From Parcubacteria group bacterium (lineage in GTDB: Bacteria > Patescibacteriota > Minisyncoccia > Moranbacterales > UBA11712), in the NCBI GenBank assembly GCA_041659685.1, contig JBAZXV010000007.1, positions 6,348 to 70,347 on the forward strand: 64,000 bases of DNA, read 5' to 3'. A model generated the notes under the pieces. The model did not search any database. It saw nothing but the letters and a program-made list of their open reading frames with translations, and had not been told where the DNA came from. This document shows, in pieces, positions 8,641-51,684 of the stretch. Position numbers and translations under genes: made by a program. How positions within the stretch are numbered: position 1 is the first letter of the stretch; each line of letters starts with the position of its first letter.

Positions 8641-10005
8641 ATGGAAACAAAAAAATCGGACAGCTTGAACGAAAAAATTTTCAAAGCCTATGACATTCGG
8701 GGGGTTTATCCCGATGAAATTAATGAAGATGCGGCGTATCTGATCGGAAAAGCATTTGTTGAATTTTTGGGCTGCAAATCTGTTGTAGTCGGGCGTGATA
8801 TGAGAAAATCTTCGCCCAGCCTTTTCGAATCGCTTGTGAAGGGGATCACCGAGCAGGGAGCGGATGTGATTGATATAGGAATGGTTGCGACGCCAATGCT
8901 CAGCTTTGCTGTCATGCAGTGGAACAGCGAGGCCGGAATCATGGTGAGTGCGTCCCATAATCCGGCGCAGTACAACGCTTTCAAACTAATCCAAAACAAG
9001 AACGGTCTTGCTCTTCAAATATACGGAGGCGGCGGCATAGATGAAATAAAAAAAATATGCATTGCGTCAGAGTTCAGGAAATCAGAGAAAAGGGGGACAG
9101 TTGAAAAAAAATCGATAAATGAAGATTACAAAAGCCGTCTGCTGTCGGTCGCTCAGGGCATAAAAGATCTGAAGATAGTCTGTGACTATGGAAACGGCGT
9201 CGGTTCAATTTCTGCCATGCCCGCACTGGATGTGCTTCCAATAAAAGTTACGCATATGTTTGCCGAACCCGACGGTGACTTCCCAAATCACGCTCCGAAT
9301 CCTCACGATATTGAAAACTTGATTTTTCTCCAGAAAAAAGTTGTCGAAGAAAAAGCTGATCTTGGAATTTTTTTCGACGGAGACGCTGATCGGAGCCAGT
9401 TGGTAAACGAAAAAGGAGAAATTATCTTTCCAGATATGGCGCTGGGCATTTTAGCGCTTGAAGAGCTGGCCAATAAGGGGAAAGGCAAGGTTTTTCACGA
9501 CCTTAGATTTACCAAGGCTGTTTCAGAGAGCATAGGGGAGCACGGGGGCGAAGCGGTGATGATGAGGGTTGGGAACCCTTTTTACAAGGAAGCTCTGAAT
9601 GACGAACAAGGACTGCTCGCAGGAGAGTTTTCGGGGCACATAATGTTCCGCGAATTTTATGGCATTGATGACGGTCTGTATTCCGCCCTTAAATTCATGA
9701 GTATAATGTGCAAGCAAGGAAAAAAAGCCAGCGAACTCGCAATTCCCTTTCAGAAATATTTTCAAACTGAAGAGATAAATATGAAAGTTTCGGACGCAGA
9801 TGCGGCAATGGACAAGGTTAAAGAAAAATATTCAGGCGGGAAACTTATTGCGATTGACGGGATCCTGATCGATTCCGGAGATTGGTGGCTGTCGCTTCGA
9901 AAATCAAACACTGAACCGCTGGTGAGGCTTCGGATCGAGGCAGAAAAAAAAGAGATACTGGACGAGAAGCGCAAGGAAGTGCTTTCCGTGATAGAGTCGG
10001 CCTAA
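8641..10005 (+). CDS. phosphomannomutase/phosphoglucomutase (alpha-D-phosphohexomutase)
   Basis: Active-site SASHNPAQYNAFK, metal-binding FDGDADR loop; 454 aa. Confidence 0.85.
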   Translation: METKKSDSLNEKIFKAYDIRGVYPDEINEDAAYLIGKAFVEFLGCKSVVVGRDMRKSSPSLFESLVKGITEQGADVIDIGMVATPMLSFAVMQWNSEAGIMVSASHNPAQYNAFKLIQNKNGLALQIYGGGGIDEIKKICIASEFRKSEKRGTVEKKSINEDYKSRLLSVAQGIKDLKIVCDYGNGVGSISAMPALDVLPIKVTHMFAEPDGDFPNHAPNPHDIENLIFLQKKVVEEKADLGIFFDGDADRSQLVNEKGEIIFPDMALGILALEELANKGKGKVFHDLRFTKAVSESIGEHGGEAVMMRVGNPFYKEALNDEQGLLAGEFSGHIMFREFYGIDDGLYSALKFMSIMCKQGKKASELAIPFQKYFQTEEINMKVSDADAAMDKVKEKYSGGKLIAIDGILIDSGDWWLSLRKSNTEPLVRLRIEAEKKEILDEKRKEVLSVIESA

Positions 10006-45309: not shown

Positions 45310-46883
45310 TGCTGGATAAATCGAACCACGACTTTAAAAGGAGCCTCAACGATAACATCGAAAAAAAGGATCAGAATGTTAACTCTTGAGAAGTTGATGG
45401 ACATCCATTTTCCGAGACGGACGAAAGGAAGAGACAAGGTGTCGATTATTACTCCGGTAATACCCTCCCTTTCTTTGGCCACTAGAAGTTCTCTTATGGG
45501 TTGGCGAACCAAAGCGTTAAAGAAGCTTACCACACTGAACAGAAAAAGGAATATCAGAATTCCGACCCAGTTGAAATGAAGTATATCCAGTATCCACAGA
45601 GCCAAACCGAATGAAATTGCGTAGGTAACGATAAAAAACCCATTCACTGCCCAATCGGAGGCGTTTTTGAGTTCATTCAGGTTAATTGCGGCAATAGGCT
45701 CTTCCTTTTTTTCATACACAATTTCTTCGGCCCCTTTTGCGATCAATTTCGAATTTTCCTGGCTGGGCCTTCGGATTGTCGCCGACATGAGAACCAGATA
45801 GAGGGGCGGAAAGATTAGGTTTATGTAAATTGGCAGGAAAGTGGTCTCTCCGGCGACATATGCATCGTACGGGTATTCAACGGCGACCGCCAGAATAATC
45901 TTCGTTATAATAAGGAATATTAAGCTTCTTTTCACCCTCTTTCTGAATCTTTTCATCTCCCGGCTGTAAACATCATCGGCTGACATCTGCACTGTAAATT
46001 TCAGGGATTCCGGGTTGGCCAGTATTTTGTCGATTTTTCCGATGTTGGCGAGGGCCGCCTCATAGAAAATATTGAAATAGACGGAATATTTTCGAATGGC
46101 AAATCCAATTTTGGTGGAAAGGGGATTCTCAAGTTTATCCCGAAGCGCTTTTTCTATTTGGGGAAGTTCGGCTGCGCTTTTTTCAATTTCATTTTCAGAA
46201 ATATCCTCTTTGAACCAATCGGGCAGATAAATCTTAAGAAGGGAGTAGTTCAGGGTTGCGTTATCAAGCTTTGAAAGGGATCTCAGGACTGCCAGGAAGA
46301 TCTGAATATCTTTGTCTCCCTCGCGCAATTTTCCGCCATTTTTTACGACGATTCTTTCTTTCACTGTCTGATACATTGCTCGTGAAAGGGCGTATCTGGA
46401 TGGGTTTGGGAATATGATTTCTTCGATTTCGCAGGAAGCCATGGCCGTGAGCCACTTTTTCATTTGATAGTTTCTTATTCTTTTGACAGCTATTTGATAT
46501 TTGGCGACGGTGTTTTTGATTCGATCCCTCAATTTTTTGTCTGCACTTTCCTTCCGGAGATATCCAGCCATCACGATTTCGTTTAAAAAGGTGTCGGAAA
46601 AATTTTGCTGGCGAAGTTCAATGATCAGGTTTCTCTTGAGAATGCGCTCTATGGCGGTTCTTTTTATGAGATGGTCGTCCTTATATTCGATAAGATTTCG
46701 CACTTTTTCATATACTTTCGCCATGCTTTCTCCCGCCTCTTCGATCTCGCTTTCCTTTTCCGCCTCTTCTTTGCGATCTTCCTCCTTCTTTTCTTCGGCA
46801 ATCAGGTTTGTTTTCAGTTCAGCAATAAAATCAGCTATTGGCTGATTGATTTCCGCTCGCGATTTATTTTTTTCCTCACTCAT
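45267..46883 (-). CDS. hypothetical membrane protein (acidic coiled-coil N-terminus, 4-5 C-terminal TM)
   Basis: 538 aa, no recognisable catalytic motif. Confidence 0.45.
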   Translation of the reverse strand: MSEEKNKSRAEINQPIADFIAELKTNLIAEEKKEEDRKEEAEKESEIEEAGESMAKVYEKVRNLIEYKDDHLIKRTAIERILKRNLIIELRQQNFSDTFLNEIVMAGYLRKESADKKLRDRIKNTVAKYQIAVKRIRNYQMKKWLTAMASCEIEEIIFPNPSRYALSRAMYQTVKERIVVKNGGKLREGDKDIQIFLAVLRSLSKLDNATLNYSLLKIYLPDWFKEDISENEIEKSAAELPQIEKALRDKLENPLSTKIGFAIRKYSVYFNIFYEAALANIGKIDKILANPESLKFTVQMSADDVYSREMKRFRKRVKRSLIFLIITKIILAVAVEYPYDAYVAGETTFLPIYINLIFPPLYLVLMSATIRRPSQENSKLIAKGAEEIVYEKKEEPIAAINLNELKNASDWAVNGFFIVTYAISFGLALWILDILHFNWVGILIFLFLFSVVSFFNALVRQPIRELLVAKEREGITGVIIDTLSLPFVRLGKWMSINFSRVNILILFFDVIVEAPFKVVVRFIQQWAGFLRKKRDELI

Positions 46884-47092
46884 ATTGTTTGTTTGGATTA
46901 GCGAATAAATTGTAGCATTTTAAGGGGCGAAATGTAAATATCCGCTGAAACCTTATTGACTAACCTGTCTTTTTCCGATAGAATAACCCTTGTAACTTGG
47001 ATTTCAGACCGATTAACTGCTGATTTTGCAGGAGCCGGGCGATCATCAGGGAACGGCTCAAGAACGGAGATTAGTCAAAAAACAAGAACCAT

Positions 47093-47169
47093 GGCCCTAT
47101 CGTCTAGTGGTTAGGACAGCGGGTTTTTGACCCTGCGGGTCATCACCCGCAGGGTGACAATCCGTTAAC
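47093..47169 (+). pseudogene. truncated 5' copy of tRNA-Glu (first 47 tRNA nt) disrupted by a 30-nt hairpin in the anticodon; lacks T-arm and acceptor 3' strand
   Basis: Identical to nt 1-35 and 36-47 of the tRNA-Glu at 47424; insert tgaccctgcgggtcatcacccgcagggtga between anticodon positions 35 and 36. Confidence 0.55.
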
Positions 47170-47173
47170 ATAT

Positions 47174-47416
47174 ATGAATTACGTTTACATTTTGAAAAGC
47201 ATGGCAGAAAATTGGGCTTATATCGGATGTTGTGACGATTTAAGAAAAAGATTTTTACAACACAATTGCGGTAAAGTAAGATCGACAAAAGCGCGCCGTC
47301 CATATAAACTGGCTTATTATGAAGCTTACGGTGATTTAAGCTTAGCGCGGAAAAGAGAATTTGAACTGAAAAATAACAATAGCAAGAAGGAAGAACTGTT
47401 TGGAAGAATATTTTGA
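47174..47416 (+). CDS. GIY-YIG nuclease superfamily protein (UPF0213/Slx1-like small endonuclease)
   Basis: YVYILKS...WAYIGCCDDLRKRFLQHNCGK...STKARRPYKLAYYEAY matches the GIY-YIG catalytic module; 80 aa. Confidence 0.75.
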   Translation: MNYVYILKSMAENWAYIGCCDDLRKRFLQHNCGKVRSTKARRPYKLAYYEAYGDLSLARKREFELKNNNSKKEELFGRIF

Positions 47417-47423
47417 GAGACAT

Positions 47424-47495
47424 GGCCCTATCGTCTAGTGGTTAGGACAGCGGGTTTTCAATCCGTTAACCGGGGTTCGATTCCCCGTAGGGCTA
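47424..47495 (+). tRNA. tRNA-Glu (anticodon TTC)
   Basis: Acceptor GGCCCTA/TAGGGCT, D-arm GTCTAGTGGTTAGGAC, anticodon loop TTTTCAA, T-arm CGGGGTTCGATTCCCCG. Confidence 0.85.
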
Positions 47496-47505
47496 CGCAC
47501 AAAAA

Positions 47506-47529
47506 TGAGGCTTATGAAAGCCTTTTTTT
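47506..47529 (+). terminator. rho-independent terminator after tRNA-Glu
   Basis: aggctt-atga-aagcct followed by a T7 run. Confidence 0.55.
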
Positions 47530-47570
47530 ATATATAAGGCCTACAAAAATTAATAATAGTTCTCTTGAAC

Positions 47571-47619
47571 ATGCGTAGGTATGCATAGGTTTGCATAGGT
47601 TGTAATACTGTGCTATACT
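47571..47619 (+). promoter_or_regulatory. three tandem 10-bp repeats (ATGCRTAGGT) overlapping a TTGCAT-17-TATACT promoter
   Basis: atgcgtaggt atgcataggt ttgcataggt at 47571-47600; -10 TATACT at 47614-47619. Confidence 0.5.
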
Positions 47620-47642
47620 GGAAACAGCTAAATAATGATTTT

Positions 47643-48386
47643 ATGGAACAAAAACCATTAATTTCAATCGGAGAGGCTGCCAAAAAAATGCATATTTCGA
47701 TAGATACCTTAAGGCGTTGGGACAATGAAGGACGTTTTCCGGCTGTCCGGTTAAGCGGAAAACGCTTCTATAGAGCGAGTGACATTGAAAAATATTTGGC
47801 AAAATTAACCATAGCAGAGGTGGATATTTTTGAAGCAGCGAAAAAATGGGCTTCGAACAACTCGGCGACCGAGCCCGATCAGTTGTTTTATTGTAAAGAT
47901 AGTTCAGTTTTTCAATATCGGCTGCACAAATTAGAAAATGCTCTCAGCGGTATCGCTAAAATAAGAGATTCATTTCCCTTGCTTACATCTATAACCGGTG
48001 AAATAGGCAACAATTCTTTCGATCACAATATTGGACAATGGCCGGACATACCTGGAATATTTTTCGGTTATGACATAGAGAGAAGAGAGATTGTATTAGC
48101 TGACAGAGGACAGGGAATTCTAGCTACTTTAAAAAGAGTAAAAAAAGAGTTGTCGTCGGATGCAGAAGCTTTGCGAGTCGCGTTTACGGAAATAATTTCT
48201 GGACGTTCCCCTGAAGCAAGAGGCAATGGATTGAAGTATGTGAAGGAAGTTGTCATGGAAAACGATATTTACCTTTTTTTTCAAACTGGCAATGCTGGGT
48301 TAGAATTAGAGAAAGGCGATCAAGCTCTTAATATTATAAAAGTAGACAACCACATTCGTGGTTGCATAGCTTTAATAAAATTTTAA
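47643..48386 (+). CDS. MerR/excisionase-type HTH fused to GHKL (anti-sigma-kinase RsbW/SpoIIAB-like) ATPase; the ORF track begins at 47610 but the promoter -10 box (47614-19) sits inside that extension
   Basis: HTH ISIGEAAKKMHISIDTLRRWDNEGRFPAV; GHKL N-box GEIGNNSFDHN, G1 ADRGQGI, G2 ARGNGLKYV. Confidence 0.65.
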   Translation: MEQKPLISIGEAAKKMHISIDTLRRWDNEGRFPAVRLSGKRFYRASDIEKYLAKLTIAEVDIFEAAKKWASNNSATEPDQLFYCKDSSVFQYRLHKLENALSGIAKIRDSFPLLTSITGEIGNNSFDHNIGQWPDIPGIFFGYDIERREIVLADRGQGILATLKRVKKELSSDAEALRVAFTEIISGRSPEARGNGLKYVKEVVMENDIYLFFQTGNAGLELEKGDQALNIIKVDNHIRGCIALIKF

Positions 48387-48394
48387 GTTAAAAT

Positions 48395-48688
48395 ATGAAT
48401 ATTGAACTAAAAAAATTTGGAACTACGCTTACTTCCAGACAATCTGGCAAAGAAGCTTTGGCGGCTATTCAACCCAGTTTTAAATCAGTCTCGGAGAAAG
48501 AGGATATCATGGTTGATTTCGCTGGGGTCGTTACCTTTTCCCCTTCATGGGGAGATGAATTTATAACCCCTCTTTATGAAAGATATGGGGATAGATTAAT
48601 TCTTAAGAATACTGCTAACTCTTCCGTGCAAGCAACGCTGCGTTTACTCGGAGGCATAATAAAGACTCAATTCAGGGAGATTGACTAA
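48395..48688 (+). CDS. STAS-like (DUF4325-type) small protein, putative GHKL partner
   Basis: 97 aa; size and spacing of an anti-sigma-antagonist-like partner directly after a GHKL gene; assignment by pattern only. Confidence 0.45.
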   Translation: MNIELKKFGTTLTSRQSGKEALAAIQPSFKSVSEKEDIMVDFAGVVTFSPSWGDEFITPLYERYGDRLILKNTANSSVQATLRLLGGIIKTQFREID

Positions 48689-48706
48689 TCGGTTTACTAA
48701 AAAATT

Positions 48707-49357
48707 ATGGAAAGAAAAGAACAAAAGAATATAATCAAGCCGGAGATTATTGCTAATCATATAACAACTTTTGCTGAACAAATAGTTTCTTTAGCGCAAA
48801 AAAAGGGAAAGGTGACAGCGGAGTTTAATGATATTATGCTCACCGCCGACAGGGAATCGAGTGTGCAGAACATCATTGATGATTACAGAAGAAAAGTTGA
48901 TGAGGGTGACGAACAATACTATAATTCGCCCAAAGGGAAGCGTGCGGCTCTTGAGATTGAAAAACTGAAAGAAAAAGAAAAACAAGAGAAGGAGCGCAGA
49001 GTCCTTGAGAGTGAAAAACGGACAGAGGAAGTGCAACGGAAACACGATGAATTGATGCAACAATTGCCCAATTTGGATTTTGCCAACTATTCTTCGGTTC
49101 TGAATTGGCTCTGCGAATTTCAAGATCCCAGCAGACAAATCGGAGTTGTGAAGCGTCAAAGCGAAGTTCTGGACATATTCGCGAAGCATGGCTATCAGCC
49201 TCTTAGTGAAGCGGCTGATAACGAGTCTTCCGATGCCGAAAGCCGAGCTCGATATATCATTAGTCGAGCGCTCGATGATTTAAAGAGCGTCGCGGGCGCT
49301 ATTCACCCAGCTATTCACAAGTTCGCTAAAGATTGGAAGAAGCAGTTTAAAGCTTAA
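48707..49357 (+). CDS. hypothetical protein with central charged coiled-coil (216 aa)
   Basis: KE-rich coiled-coil region; no identifiable catalytic motif. Confidence 0.4.
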   Translation: MERKEQKNIIKPEIIANHITTFAEQIVSLAQKKGKVTAEFNDIMLTADRESSVQNIIDDYRRKVDEGDEQYYNSPKGKRAALEIEKLKEKEKQEKERRVLESEKRTEEVQRKHDELMQQLPNLDFANYSSVLNWLCEFQDPSRQIGVVKRQSEVLDIFAKHGYQPLSEAADNESSDAESRARYIISRALDDLKSVAGAIHPAIHKFAKDWKKQFKA

Positions 49358-49498
49358 TGGCTGCGCATCTTTAATTCCTCGATAACTTGGTTCCAACTAT
49401 TGAGTAGGTAGTCTGCCAGTTTCATACTTCCAGGATATTTTTAACTTTCTCTTCGGAGATTTTCAAAAATTACAGTTGTTTTTACATCACTATTTTCT

Positions 49499-50104
49499 AT
49501 GGCGAAAAATTTTATTATTGAAGACTTCAAAAAAATATTGGTGTTGTATAAGTTAAAGGAAGTTTATCGCTCCTGCCATGTTTTGGACAGAAACGAAAGT
49601 TCGGCGGAGCATAGCTGGGGCTCGATGATTCTCGCCGATTATTTTCTGAGCAGAATGAAAACGAAGCTAAACAGGGAAAGGGTTATGGATATCTTACTCT
49701 ATCATGATTTGGTGGAAATCGAAGCGGGGGATACATATGTCCACGACAAAGAAGCGGCAAAAACCAAGAAGCAGAGAGAAAAGAAGGGGTTGGCCAGGCT
49801 TAAAAGAAGAATTCCTAAAGAACTGGTGAAAAAGTATGCCGGACTTTTTAAAGAATTTCAGGACCGCCAGACTGCTGAGGCTAAATTTGCTAATGCAATC
49901 GATAAACTTGATCCGATTATCCATTCTTTGGAAAACAGCCGCTCTTGGATCGAATGGGATCTGAGCGAGGAAGATATAAGGGAAGTAAAGGAAAAATATC
50001 TGGTATTTTCCAGGGAATTTATGAAAATATTAGATGAACTTCTCAAATATTTGAGGAAAAGCAATCTAATAAAAGGCAGCGGGGGAAAACAGAAAAGAAA
50101 GTAG
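49499..50104 (+). CDS. HD-domain phosphohydrolase (YfbR-like 5'-deoxynucleotidase fold)
   Basis: H..H ... HDLVEIEAGD metal-binding motifs. Confidence 0.7.
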   Translation: MAKNFIIEDFKKILVLYKLKEVYRSCHVLDRNESSAEHSWGSMILADYFLSRMKTKLNRERVMDILLYHDLVEIEAGDTYVHDKEAAKTKKQREKKGLARLKRRIPKELVKKYAGLFKEFQDRQTAEAKFANAIDKLDPIIHSLENSRSWIEWDLSEEDIREVKEKYLVFSREFMKILDELLKYLRKSNLIKGSGGKQKRK

Positions 50105-50205
50105 GGTGTTGACTCGAAATTTGCCGGATATTGCTTATTTTTCAGGGACTGTGCTATTATTCCCTAAGATTTCAGGGGGATTAATAAACTTTAATAAGAA
50201 ACCAC

Positions 50206-50475
50206 ATGAAAAAGAAAGAGCTCGTGGATGCGATTGTTGAGAAGACTCAACTCGCCAAAAAAGACGTAGTTGCGGTTATCGAGACAATGGCCGAAGTAGT
50301 AAAGGCAAATGTCGTTAAAGAGCCGGTTGAAATTCCGGGTCTTGTAAAGGTTGAGAAGAAGCATCGAGCCGCCAGAATGGGAAGAAACCCAATGACTGGG
50401 GAGAGCATCAGCATTCCTGCCAAGACTGTTCTTAAGGCCCGCGTTCTCAAGAAACTTAAAGACGCTGTAATGTAA
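50206..50475 (+). CDS. DNA-binding protein HU (HU/IHF family)
   Basis: 89 aa; MKKKELVDAIVEKT...GRNPMTGESISIPAK arm motif. Confidence 0.85.
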   Translation: MKKKELVDAIVEKTQLAKKDVVAVIETMAEVVKANVVKEPVEIPGLVKVEKKHRAARMGRNPMTGESISIPAKTVLKARVLKKLKDAVM

Positions 50476-50501
50476 TTTCAGAAATTCATTTCTGGAACTT
50501 C

Positions 50502-50534
50502 AAAAAATCCCGCATTCAGGCGGGATTTTTTTTC
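50502..50534 (+). terminator. rho-independent terminator after HU gene
   Basis: atcccgc-attcag-gcgggat followed by a T8 run. Confidence 0.65.
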
Positions 50535-50601
50535 GCAAAACATTCAATGTTGGGCAAATTCCAATATTGAATATTGCAACTGTATGCTTTATACTTAATC
50601 C

Positions 50602-51684
50602 ATGAATATTCTAGCCATAGAAACATCCTGTGACGATACAGCCGTTGCCCTTGTAAGAACCGAGAAGGGGAGCCTTTTTGTCACTGACAGTCTTATCTCT
50701 TCTCAGATAAAGGTTCATGCTCCTTTCGGAGGGGTCGTTCCGGATCTGACTGCCCGGGAGCATCTAAAAAATTTGCCCCGCCTTCTCAGAAAGATTTTTG
50801 ATAGGAACAAAATAACCGCCAAAGATATAGATTTGATTTCCGTCACTCAGGGACCGGGTCTGATTCCTGCGCTATTGATTGGGACTAATGCGGCAAAAGC
50901 CCTGGCTTATTCCTGGCGAAAGCCCCTGGTGGGGGTAAATCATGTTGCCGGACATATTTACGCCAATTTTATCGGGCTGAAAAATAAAATAAAAAAAGAT
51001 ATCAAGTTTCCGATATTGGCGCTGGTTGTTTCGGGAGGGCACACGGAGCTCATTGTTATGAAAAAGCATATGGATTTTAAAATCGTCGGACAGACGCTCG
51101 ATGATGCGGCAGGCGAGGCTTTTGACAAGGTGGCTAAAATTTTGGGTCTGGGATATCCAGGAGGGCCGAAAATCGCGGCTTACGCGGCGAAGCACGGAAC
51201 GTGTAACGCAGGGCGCAGAACGAAAGATAATAGTTATGCGCTTCCGCGGCCGATGATAAAAGCTGATAATCTTAATTTCTCTTTTTCCGGGCTCAAGACG
51301 GCTGTTCTCTATACCGTTCGGGATAATCCAAAAATTTTGAAAGACAAAAAACTCAGCCGGGAGCTTTGCGCGGAATTCCAACAGGCGGTGATCGATGTTC
51401 TTGTCCATAAAACCCTTAAAGCCGCCAGAAAATACAAGCCAAAAACGGTTATTCTCGGCGGCGGCGTGTCGGCCAATAAGGAACTTCGCAAACAACTCGG
51501 AAAAGCGATAAAGGATGCTCTTCCAAAAACCAAATATCAAATGCCGGATGCCGGGTACTCTCTTGATAACGCGGCCATGATCGCAACTTTGGGATATTAT
51601 AAATTCAATCTGGCAAAAAACAGAAAAATATTTGAAAGCAGCTGGAGAAAAATGGAAGCTGACGCCAATTTAAAATATAAATAA
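50602..51684 (+). CDS. tsaD: tRNA N6-adenosine threonylcarbamoyltransferase TsaD (Kae1/Gcp)
   Basis: MNILAIETSCDDTAVALV N-terminus; HxxGH (VNHVAGH) metal motif; 360 aa. Confidence 0.9.
   Translation: MNILAIETSCDDTAVALVRTEKGSLFVTDSLISSQIKVHAPFGGVVPDLTAREHLKNLPRLLRKIFDRNKITAKDIDLISVTQGPGLIPALLIGTNAAKALAYSWRKPLVGVNHVAGHIYANFIGLKNKIKKDIKFPILALVVSGGHTELIVMKKHMDFKIVGQTLDDAAGEAFDKVAKILGLGYPGGPKIAAYAAKHGTCNAGRRTKDNSYALPRPMIKADNLNFSFSGLKTAVLYTVRDNPKILKDKKLSRELCAEFQQAVIDVLVHKTLKAARKYKPKTVILGGGVSANKELRKQLGKAIKDALPKTKYQMPDAGYSLDNAAMIATLGYYKFNLAKNRKIFESSWRKMEADANLKYK

Follow-up and report, generated by a model that had tools for sequence, protein, structure and literature searches.

A kinase-STAS gene pair of CPR bacteria as a probable autoregulated, minimal relative of the CapK/CapS regulators

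The window, by which we mean the whole 64-kb stretch of Parcubacteria DNA that was analysed, carries four open reading frames on its plus strand, at 47643-48386, 48395-48688, 48707-49357 and 49499-50104, downstream of a GIY-YIG reading frame (47174-47416) and of a tRNA-Glu gene (47424-47496) that occupies the region directly upstream. All four are real, as an initial annotation of this DNA had proposed, and the first, which begins with ATG, is identical to an NCBI protein. In order, they encode a kinase-like regulator of 247 aa; a STAS-like partner of 97 aa, of the DUF4325 type, whose gene begins 8 bp after that of the kinase; a charged, coiled-coil orphan of 216 aa, 18 bp downstream of the pair; and an HD protein (HD_3, E 1e-34 in the Pfam profile search). 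The present annotation of the first two genes is 'MerR family regulator' and 'DUF4325'. An Rfam scan of 46800-50700 gave nothing above threshold except the tRNA, and a terminator scan predicted none between the pair and the 216-aa ORF and none before the downstream gene for HU.

The four genes had been read as a self-contained unit ending at HU, in which a partner switch is wired to a nucleotide-hydrolysing HD effector, and it is this reading that gene neighbourhoods contradict. The HTH-GHKL and DUF4325/STAS-like genes lie side by side in 79 of 80 related genomes, but the coiled-coil ORF, HD, HU and TsaD are linked to the pair in none of those 80, the coiled-coil ORF and HD are linked to it in none of the 99 loci of a larger set, and no third gene recurs beside the pair across the 80 neighbourhoods. 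On a sister contig, a 538-aa gene, HD, HU, TsaD, a 202-aa gene, Hsp20 and VanW follow one another in that order and the pair is absent. Since HD-HU-TsaD is kept where relatives have no copy of the pair at this site, HD, together with HU and TsaD, is a housekeeping block unrelated to the pair. The pair, the orphan ORF and the GIY-YIG gene are a variable insert, with a GC content only ~4-5 points below that of its flanks and with no convincing direct repeats or att-like sites flanking it. The neighbours of the pair, which in the window are GIY-YIG, tRNA-Glu, the orphan ORF and HD, differ even at 80% protein identity. The 216-aa ORF is a singleton cluster named 'hypothetical protein', without a Pfam, PADLOC, PHROG or PDB match and without a homologue in 206 loci, 99 of them carrying the pair; it is probably co-transcribed with the pair as passenger or cargo and not as a conserved member.

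The description of the locus as a tRNA-linked islet holds in part. The insert does lie beside the tRNA/GIY-YIG junction, but tRNA linkage was rejected for the family, since only 3 of 60 loci have a tRNA directly before the pair, and these tRNAs differ. An association with GIY-YIG was likewise rejected: it is seen at a few loci only, which does not exceed the (estimated) expectation for an abundant CPR gene. A housekeeping RsbW/RsbV-sigma module had been raised as the counter-case to a conflict module, and in the neighbourhoods examined neither a sigma factor gene nor a PP2C phosphatase gene was found near the pair.

The 247-aa protein joins an N-terminal MerR/BldC-type HTH (aa 7-54), through a helical linker, to a SpoIIAB-like GHKL (Bergerat) domain (aa ~75-247) that has no transducer domain. 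Its HTH passes Pfam thresholds (MerR/HTH_17) and has BldC as its nearest solved structure, in agreement with the proposed fusion of a MerR/excisionase-type HTH to a SpoIIAB/RsbW-like GHKL domain. Only ~20 residues separate the HTH from the start of the GHKL domain, with only helices there in the structure model, and the linker carries the invariant residues W69, Y83, C84 and F90. Within the GHKL domain, E120 and N124 of the N-box are invariant among homologues, and the short lid has the E-x-R-G-x-G-L motif that is also seen in CapK, the kinase of the CapK/CapS system (Chambers et al., EMBO J 2026; PMC13373217). An hhalign comparison of the kinase domain with CapK gave a probability of 75%, E 2.6e-5 and 33% identity over 105 columns, versus E 0.32, which is no detectable sequence similarity, in the control against SpoIIAB. 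Profile searches, which the initial annotation had called for, matched HTH_17, DUF4325 and HD_3, but the Pfam HATPase models matched 0 of 28 family members at E<=1. In structural comparisons, the top matches of the GHKL domain are all partner-switch Ser kinases, and SpoIIAB/SpoIIAA and RsbW/RsbV are the best matches for the kinase and STAS proteins. The GHKL part is also matched by phrog_3364. Among PADLOC-DB v2 profiles, the sole match to the kinase is the generic mad1 HTH (6.7e-12), mad1 being an accessory 'widespread regulator' in MADS; with this generic HTH as the only match, membership in MADS was rejected.

The 97-aa partner is a single STAS-like domain, an assignment borne out by a DUF4325 score of 26.5 bits against a Pfam cut-off of 23, and the only PDB sequence matched by its STAS profile is VapS. 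Helix 50-67 has an invariant P50-S51-W52 at its N-terminus. Ser51 of this motif (codon 48545-48547) is invariant in alignments of 73 and 31 sequences and is aligned with Ser54 of CapS, the proven phospho-acceptor (PMC13373217). The STAS, coiled-coil and HD proteins had no match in PADLOC. A coupling between PIN.4 VapC and DUF4325 genes was noted in an earlier survey (PMC5499597); a VapC/PIN gene is present neither at the window locus nor in the 80 related loci.

The predicted operator consists of three tandem 10-bp direct repeats on the plus strand at 47572-47601 (TGCGTAGGTa, TGCATAGGTt and TGCATAGGTt; TRF period 10, 3.0 copies, 90% matches). The third copy overlaps the -35 hexamer, as had been noticed from the outset, of a sigma-70-like promoter recognised by consensus match at 47590-47619, also on the plus strand, with TTGCAT at 47591-47596 and an extended -10, TGcTATACT, at 47611-47619 (spacing 17-18 nt, with the -35 read as TTTGCA or TTGCAT). 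Single 9-mer copies are no more frequent in the window than chance predicts (9 with at most one mismatch vs 10.75 expected) and the triplet is unique within the 64 kb; it is significant because it is conserved upstream of homologous operons. There, the motif TGYATAGRTTT occurs at 6.9 per kb, compared with 0.032 per kb per strand elsewhere, an enrichment of more than 200-fold that supports an operator at the promoter. The sites are overwhelmingly in one orientation (109 forward vs 5 reverse), with spacings that peak at 10, 21, 43 and 53 bp; a looser core occurs at least twice at 71 of 76 loci; 20 loci have sites fused with the -35, and the median distance from the end of the last site to the ATG is 23 nt. 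Conservation of the operator extends across the CPR. Furthermore, residue 21 of the HTH varies with base 3 of the operator, D pairing with C at all 41 of its loci and Q with T at 28 of 29. These are raw locus counts that ignore kinship, and D and Q may simply mark two clades. BldC reportedly binds direct repeats head-to-tail. With strong comparative support, the repeats TGCATAGGT, with the C/T alternative TGTATAGAT, are candidate operator forms for the HTH. Besides those of the pair's own operon, a PWM scan of ~990 kb yielded only two paired operator sites (L039:2900 and L073:706), suggesting that regulation is mainly local, and further paired sites are absent from the rest of the window. When metagenome contigs were searched for a regulon with the exact tandem operator, the pair lay downstream in 10 of 81 matches; this search was set aside as uninformative because the remaining matches were mostly non-CPR or microsatellite-like chance matches.

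At least 575 species-level genomes, from many lineages of the CPR, carry the pair, which is essentially confined to CPR/Patescibacteria MAGs, with no relatives, in phages or plasmids, in IMG/VR or PLSDB. Its proteins are 50-80% identical throughout, exceed the shared genes nearby by a median of 19 points of identity, and are more conserved than co-located genes in 31 of 34 comparisons. The closest relatives of the window among the matches listed are Moranbacteria; hence, similarity tracks taxonomy. Two divergent copies are present in some single MAGs, at 68% and 84% identity.

Taken together, these observations make it probable that 47572-48688 is a self-contained, autoregulated two-gene operon of an anti-sigma-like kinase and its STAS partner, a minimal, CPR-wide relative of CapK/CapS. 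It is worth considering what else the pair might be. One alternative, which we regard as rather unlikely, is that it works as a CapK/CapS-like controller of adjacent pathways or as a TA-like element, that is, as a mobile sensor of stress or infection that turns on variable cargo downstream, or as a kinase toxin with a STAS antitoxin. At one locus (L076) the pair is followed, after 3 bp, by a complete CBASS operon of cyclase (7e-100) and 2TM effector (9e-64), with a type IV REase adjoining; AbiEi lies downstream of the pair in L078 and AbiEii in L025. Relatives that lack the HTH, in which the kinase gene is likewise immediately followed by a STAS gene, have DUF4325 partners and adjoin Rep and primase, HARE-HTH genes or a tRNA. 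The match to phrog_3364, the shifting location of the pair between close relatives and the divergent double copies point the same way, and VapKSC has been proven to act as a TA defence system (PMC13373217). However, most relatives of the pair are not next to defence genes: downstream of it lie mostly housekeeping genes (YchF, RadC, NUDIX, S6, ThiI and others), and a downstream-specific enrichment was not supported, PADLOC families numbering 28 in upstream controls vs 17 downstream. Immune operons follow CapKS in 348 of 443 cases (79%; PMC13373217), as against a small minority of loci here. The lack of IMG/VR and PLSDB copies counts against this alternative, as does a conservation above that of co-located genes, which is atypical for defence or TA genes.

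We consider improbable a housekeeping role, in which the pair would be a CPR transcription factor that senses energy or stress, governs a regulon dispersed elsewhere in the genome and is inherited vertically under strong purifying selection. Its breadth and identity across CPR lineages, the tracking of taxonomy and the CPR-wide operator would all suit such a role, as would the fact that RsbW and SpoIIAB are ATP/ADP-sensitive switches. The scarcity of paired operators away from the pair's own operon does not suit it; nor do the lack of conserved synteny and the close relative that lacks the pair at the syntenic site. That the GHKL protein is an ATPase, an ATP-dependent clamp or a pseudo-kinase, and the STAS-like protein a binding partner that is not phosphorylated, is very improbable in view of the uniformly Ser-kinase structural matches, the missing transducer domain, the CapK-like lid and the invariant Ser at the acceptor position. 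The original idea of a conflict or abortive-infection module of four genes, with the pair controlling the coiled-coil protein and a YfbR-like HD effector in a tRNA islet, is hardly credible: the genes are co-oriented and closely spaced without a predicted terminator before HU, the insert adjoins the tRNA/GIY-YIG junction and CBASS or AbiEi can lie downstream of relatives of the pair, but the model is largely refuted by the synteny described above, PADLOC finds nothing in the three proteins after the kinase, and HD_3 is a general family here.

For the autoregulated two-gene operon, we propose the following mechanism. The MerR/BldC-type HTH would bind the TGYATAGRT direct repeats, as comparison strongly suggests, and, the repeats lying on one helix face across the -35/-10 region, would thereby repress the operon's own promoter. 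Judging by fold, motifs and the alignment to CapS Ser54, the GHKL domain would bind ATP and the 97-aa partner in the manner of SpoIIAB:SpoIIAA and would phosphorylate the partner on Ser51. More speculatively, binding or phosphorylation of the partner could shift the oligomeric state or the DNA affinity of the HTH-kinase, de-repressing the operon and any gene co-transcribed downstream, here presumably the 216-aa ORF. Such control of downstream cargo cannot be general, since the gene downstream of the pair is on the opposite strand in 20 of 72 loci. By analogy, the input could be ssDNA or DNA damage, as for CapK, or the ATP/ADP balance, as for SpoIIAB and RsbW. On a bolder reading, which we would rate at somewhat less than an even chance, the promoter-bound repressor would itself be a CapK-like Ser kinase that sits with a BldC-like HTH on phased direct repeats, with its STAS substrate as co-repressor or anti-repressor: a sigma-independent, single-operon sensor of stress (ssDNA or energy) that occasionally gates CBASS or Abi and would be among the most conserved regulators of the CPR/Patescibacteria.

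Recognisable regulators are very few in CPR bacteria, and experimental genetics is almost absent; a compact two-gene switch present in hundreds of their species is of interest for that reason. The code of Asp21 with C and Gln21 with T, together with a readable operator, makes the predicted DNA specificity directly testable. The pair also extends the kinase-STAS family of CapK/CapS and VapKSC to a form with a predicted DNA-binding domain on the kinase, which bears on the unexplained role of the CapK HTH.

The initial annotation had found no named system of this composition. The two-gene core is now matched by the kinase and STAS pairs of CapK/CapS and VapK/VapS/VapC (PMC13373217), and it is probably a previously undescribed minimal relative of the CapK/CapS regulators published in 2026. 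The pair and CapK/CapS are both two-gene operons in which the STAS gene directly follows that of the kinase; both kinases combine an N-terminal HTH with an anti-sigma-like GHKL domain that can be aligned, and the acceptor Ser is aligned as well; and CapK/CapS is autoregulated at its own promoter, as the pair is predicted to be from its operator sequence. At least one relative of the pair lies directly upstream of CBASS. The differences are nonetheless considerable. CapK is an HTH-STAS-GHKL protein of 368 aa with an internal STAS domain of ~100 residues, which is its ssDNA-binding site (PMC13373217), whereas the 247-aa protein has no internal STAS domain, and the N-box accordingly lies at residue 218 in CapK and at residue 124 here. 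The HTH is of the MerR/BldC type here and of another type in CapK. CapS carries a wHTH and represses at palindromes, whereas the STAS protein here lacks a DNA-binding domain and the operator consists of direct repeats; in CapK/CapS the HTH of CapK is dispensable and CapS, not CapK, is the repressor (PMC13373217), such that the kinase as DNA-binder, as proposed here, is without experimental precedent. VapK/VapS/VapC shares the small STAS partner of DUF4325 type, but VapK is a STAS-GHKL protein without an HTH, and the STAS protein here has no C-terminal inhibitory tail. BldC, a small MerR-like developmental regulator of Streptomyces, stands alone at ~68 aa, with neither kinase nor STAS partner. 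SpoIIAB/SpoIIAA and RsbW/RsbV share the minimal kinase fold and the Ser at the N-terminus of the STAS helix; where those kinases sequester a sigma factor, the output here would be a DNA-binding domain joined covalently to the kinase.

The conserved unit in this part of the window consists of two genes rather than the four proposed in the initial annotation, which had grouped an HTH-GHKL gene, a STAS-like gene, a coiled-coil gene and an HD hydrolase gene into one module. The individual parts of that observation are real. The first ORF (47643–48386, + strand, 247 aa) is kinase-like, its ATG start agrees with the NCBI protein, and Pfam assigns it a MerR/HTH_17 domain; the second (48395–48688, +, 97 aa) matches DUF4325 and is STAS-like; the third (48707–49357, +) encodes 216 aa; and the fourth (49499–50104, +, 201 aa) is an HD_3/YfbR-like protein. 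With one genome scanned per species, at least 575 relatives came up. Those among the matches listed are, by record title, nearly all CPR/Patescibacteria MAGs, with a few under other labels, and they include Moran-, Magasanik-, Portnoy-, Yanofsky-, Roizman-, Gottesman-, Doudna-, Falkow-, Peregrini- and Saccharibacteria, among others. In the best 80 of these at least 575 relatives, the DUF4325 gene lies directly after the kinase gene in 79 loci, the exception being cut off by the end of its contig; none of the 80 contains a homologue of the 216-aa ORF, HD, HU or TsaD, and clustering all neighbouring ORFs revealed no third recurrent gene. A relative with an 80% identical protein has wholly different neighbours.

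The HD gene belongs instead to a conserved housekeeping block, because the order of that block is kept in relatives that lack the kinase–STAS pair at this site. The closest HD orthologue (78%) lies on a contig with the order 575 aa (−), 538 aa (−), 366 bp, HD, HU, TsaD, 202 aa, Hsp20, ..., VanW, which is the gene order of the window (HU at 50206–50475 and TsaD at 50602–51684, both +) minus the GIY-YIG ORF, the pair and the 216-aa ORF; HD-TsaD...Hsp20-VanW is also kept in a more distant Moranbacteria genome. Judged by this gene order, window positions 46884–49498 hold insertions. Among homologues P0273–P0343 of the HD_3 protein, the nearest non-Moranbacteria ones (40–48% identity) bear the names of DPANN archaea (Woesearchaeota, Nanoarchaeota), a hint that HD_3 genes are shared between two groups of ultra-small organisms, CPR and DPANN. 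The 216-aa ORF is an orphan, forming a singleton cluster with no match in Pfam, PADLOC, PHROGs, PDB or 206 fetched loci; given that it starts 18 bp past the pair and no terminator is predicted in the gap, it is probably co-transcribed with the pair.

Upstream of the pair lie the GIY-YIG ORF (47174–47416, +), tRNA-Glu (47424–47496, +) and, after the latter, a terminator-like hairpin (47507–47524). The 5′ two-thirds of tRNA-Glu is duplicated on either side of the GIY-YIG ORF, as 43-nt copies at 47085–47127 and 47416–47458 (95% identical) and again as 47149–47169 and 47450–47470, and the upstream partial copy has a hairpin with 19-nt arms (47122–47163) inserted at the anticodon position. The arrangement at 47085–47496 has the look of a GIY-YIG gene that entered the tRNA gene or landed beside it, the complete tRNA having been rebuilt downstream.

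The three tandem 10-bp repeats at 47572–47601 (+), also noted initially, hold up well: TGYATAGRTTT direct repeats are kept upstream of homologous operons and, on comparative grounds, are a conserved operator. In 79 upstream regions of 200 bp, the strict core has 109 forward and 5 reverse occurrences, a density of 6.9/kb compared with 0.032/kb/strand in the remaining 925 kb. Site spacings peak at 10, 21, 43 and 53 bp, so the sites would share one helix face. Once the core is relaxed, two or more sites appear in 71 of 76 loci; a site is fused to a TTGACA-like −35 in 20 loci, and the end of the last site precedes the start codon by a median of 23 nt. When loci are counted with kinship ignored, Asp at recognition-helix residue 21 accompanies C at operator base 3 in 41 of 41 cases and Gln accompanies T in 28 of 29; with Asn or Met the base is T. 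There is strong comparative support for DNA binding by the HTH of the kinase, and the simplest reading is that this protein would repress its own promoter. In the mechanism favoured here, the STAS partner would be bound and phosphorylated on Ser51 by the kinase, toggling repression; that the protein acts as a kinase, which way the switch turns and what signal it answers to are inferred.

Outside these promoters, paired operator sites occur only twice in ~990 kb, both strong, in the loci of two relatives (L039:2900, spanning 2900–2935, and L073:706, spanning 706–740). A DUF4143-type AAA ATPase gene follows one of them at ~200 bp, and the other lies upstream of a nucleotidyltransferase/HEPN-like gene pair preceding the kinase operon. 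The window holds no further tandem site, and an exact-pattern scan of metagenome contigs was no help in delimiting a regulon. A fourth operator-like copy, TTGCATAGCTT (48362–48372), falls within the kinase gene at its 3′ end, 23 bp before the STAS start codon. It overlaps the conserved codons for G-C-I-A, and position 7 of the motif is a disfavoured C, so it is probably a coding coincidence.

It is worth considering what the pair may control. It may act locally, controlling the genes beside it, or have a role in conflict: in a complete Candidatus Peregrinibacteria chromosome (OY970195.1; locus L076, 7995–12355) a CBASS oligonucleotide cyclase gene (PADLOC 7e-100) begins 3 bp past it, then come a 2TM effector (PADLOC 9e-64) and, on the other strand, a type IV methyl-directed restriction enzyme. 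The arrangement in this CPR genome is CapKS-like, and AbiEi lies downstream of the pair in one other CPR locus. The pair may instead be a housekeeping stress or energy sensor. Its downstream genes are mostly housekeeping and in 20 of 72 loci lie on the opposite strand; the 106 downstream genes draw PADLOC matches no more often than do 108 upstream control genes; and IMG/VR and PLSDB hold no copies. Both proteins exceed co-located shared genes in conservation in 31 of 34 comparisons (median 19 points). For the four proteins described here, the sole PADLOC match is the generic mad1 HTH, an accessory ‘widespread regulator’ in the MADS preprint. Two MAGs each contain two divergent copies of the pair (L019/L047 and L023/L025; 68% and 84% identical, operators similar), possibly true paralogues with potential cross-talk or else bin chimerism, and in locus L050 a second divergent DUF4325 paralogue (9031–9285, 85 aa, Pfam 3e-11) sits 11 bp downstream of a canonical pair.

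The GHKL family is tight, as an exhaustive phmmer search with the domain found only 302 representatives among 1.84 billion. It includes HTH-less forms of ~190–200 aa and, rarely, proteins whose GHKL core has a different N-terminal fusion (P0382 and P0395), one to a cytidylyltransferase-like domain (Pfam 2.6e-12) and the other to a ~100-aa extension with no Pfam match and a winged-helix look. The HTH-less relatives (L207, L208, L209 and L210; proteins P0383, P0419, P0393 and P0385) have non-CPR, mobile-element-like surroundings, with Rep, Toprim primase and RHH at a GC of 0.66, a HARE-HTH protein upstream, or a position directly after a tRNA 3′ end. They too precede DUF4325 genes (L207, L209), and their own upstream regions carry direct repeats unrelated to the operator. 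The GHKL domain is also matched by phrog_3364, a phage family with no assigned function.

It is informative to compare the pair with published kinase–STAS systems. CapK is an HTH-STAS-GHKL protein, activated by ssDNA, that phosphorylates Ser54 of CapS; CapS (STAS-wHTH) represses its own promoter and the adjacent immune operon, and VapS is a STAS antitoxin to the VapC nuclease (PMC13373217). Against sequences from the source data of that paper, the kinase family profile matches the CapK GHKL domain (E 2.6e-5, 33% identity, 105 columns), whereas a SpoIIAB sequence entered by hand yielded nothing in the same test (E 0.32). The STAS profile aligns weakly with CapS, placing Ser51 opposite CapS Ser54, and VapS is the sole PDB sequence it touches (E 0.1). 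Unlike CapK, the kinase described here lacks an internal STAS domain and carries a MerR/BldC-type HTH; its partner lacks the DNA-binding domain of CapS and the tail of VapS. CPR forms are not mentioned in PMC13373217 or elsewhere in the literature searched. Within the CapK/CapS family the pair represents a new architecture, which is widespread and strongly conserved among CPR bacteria.
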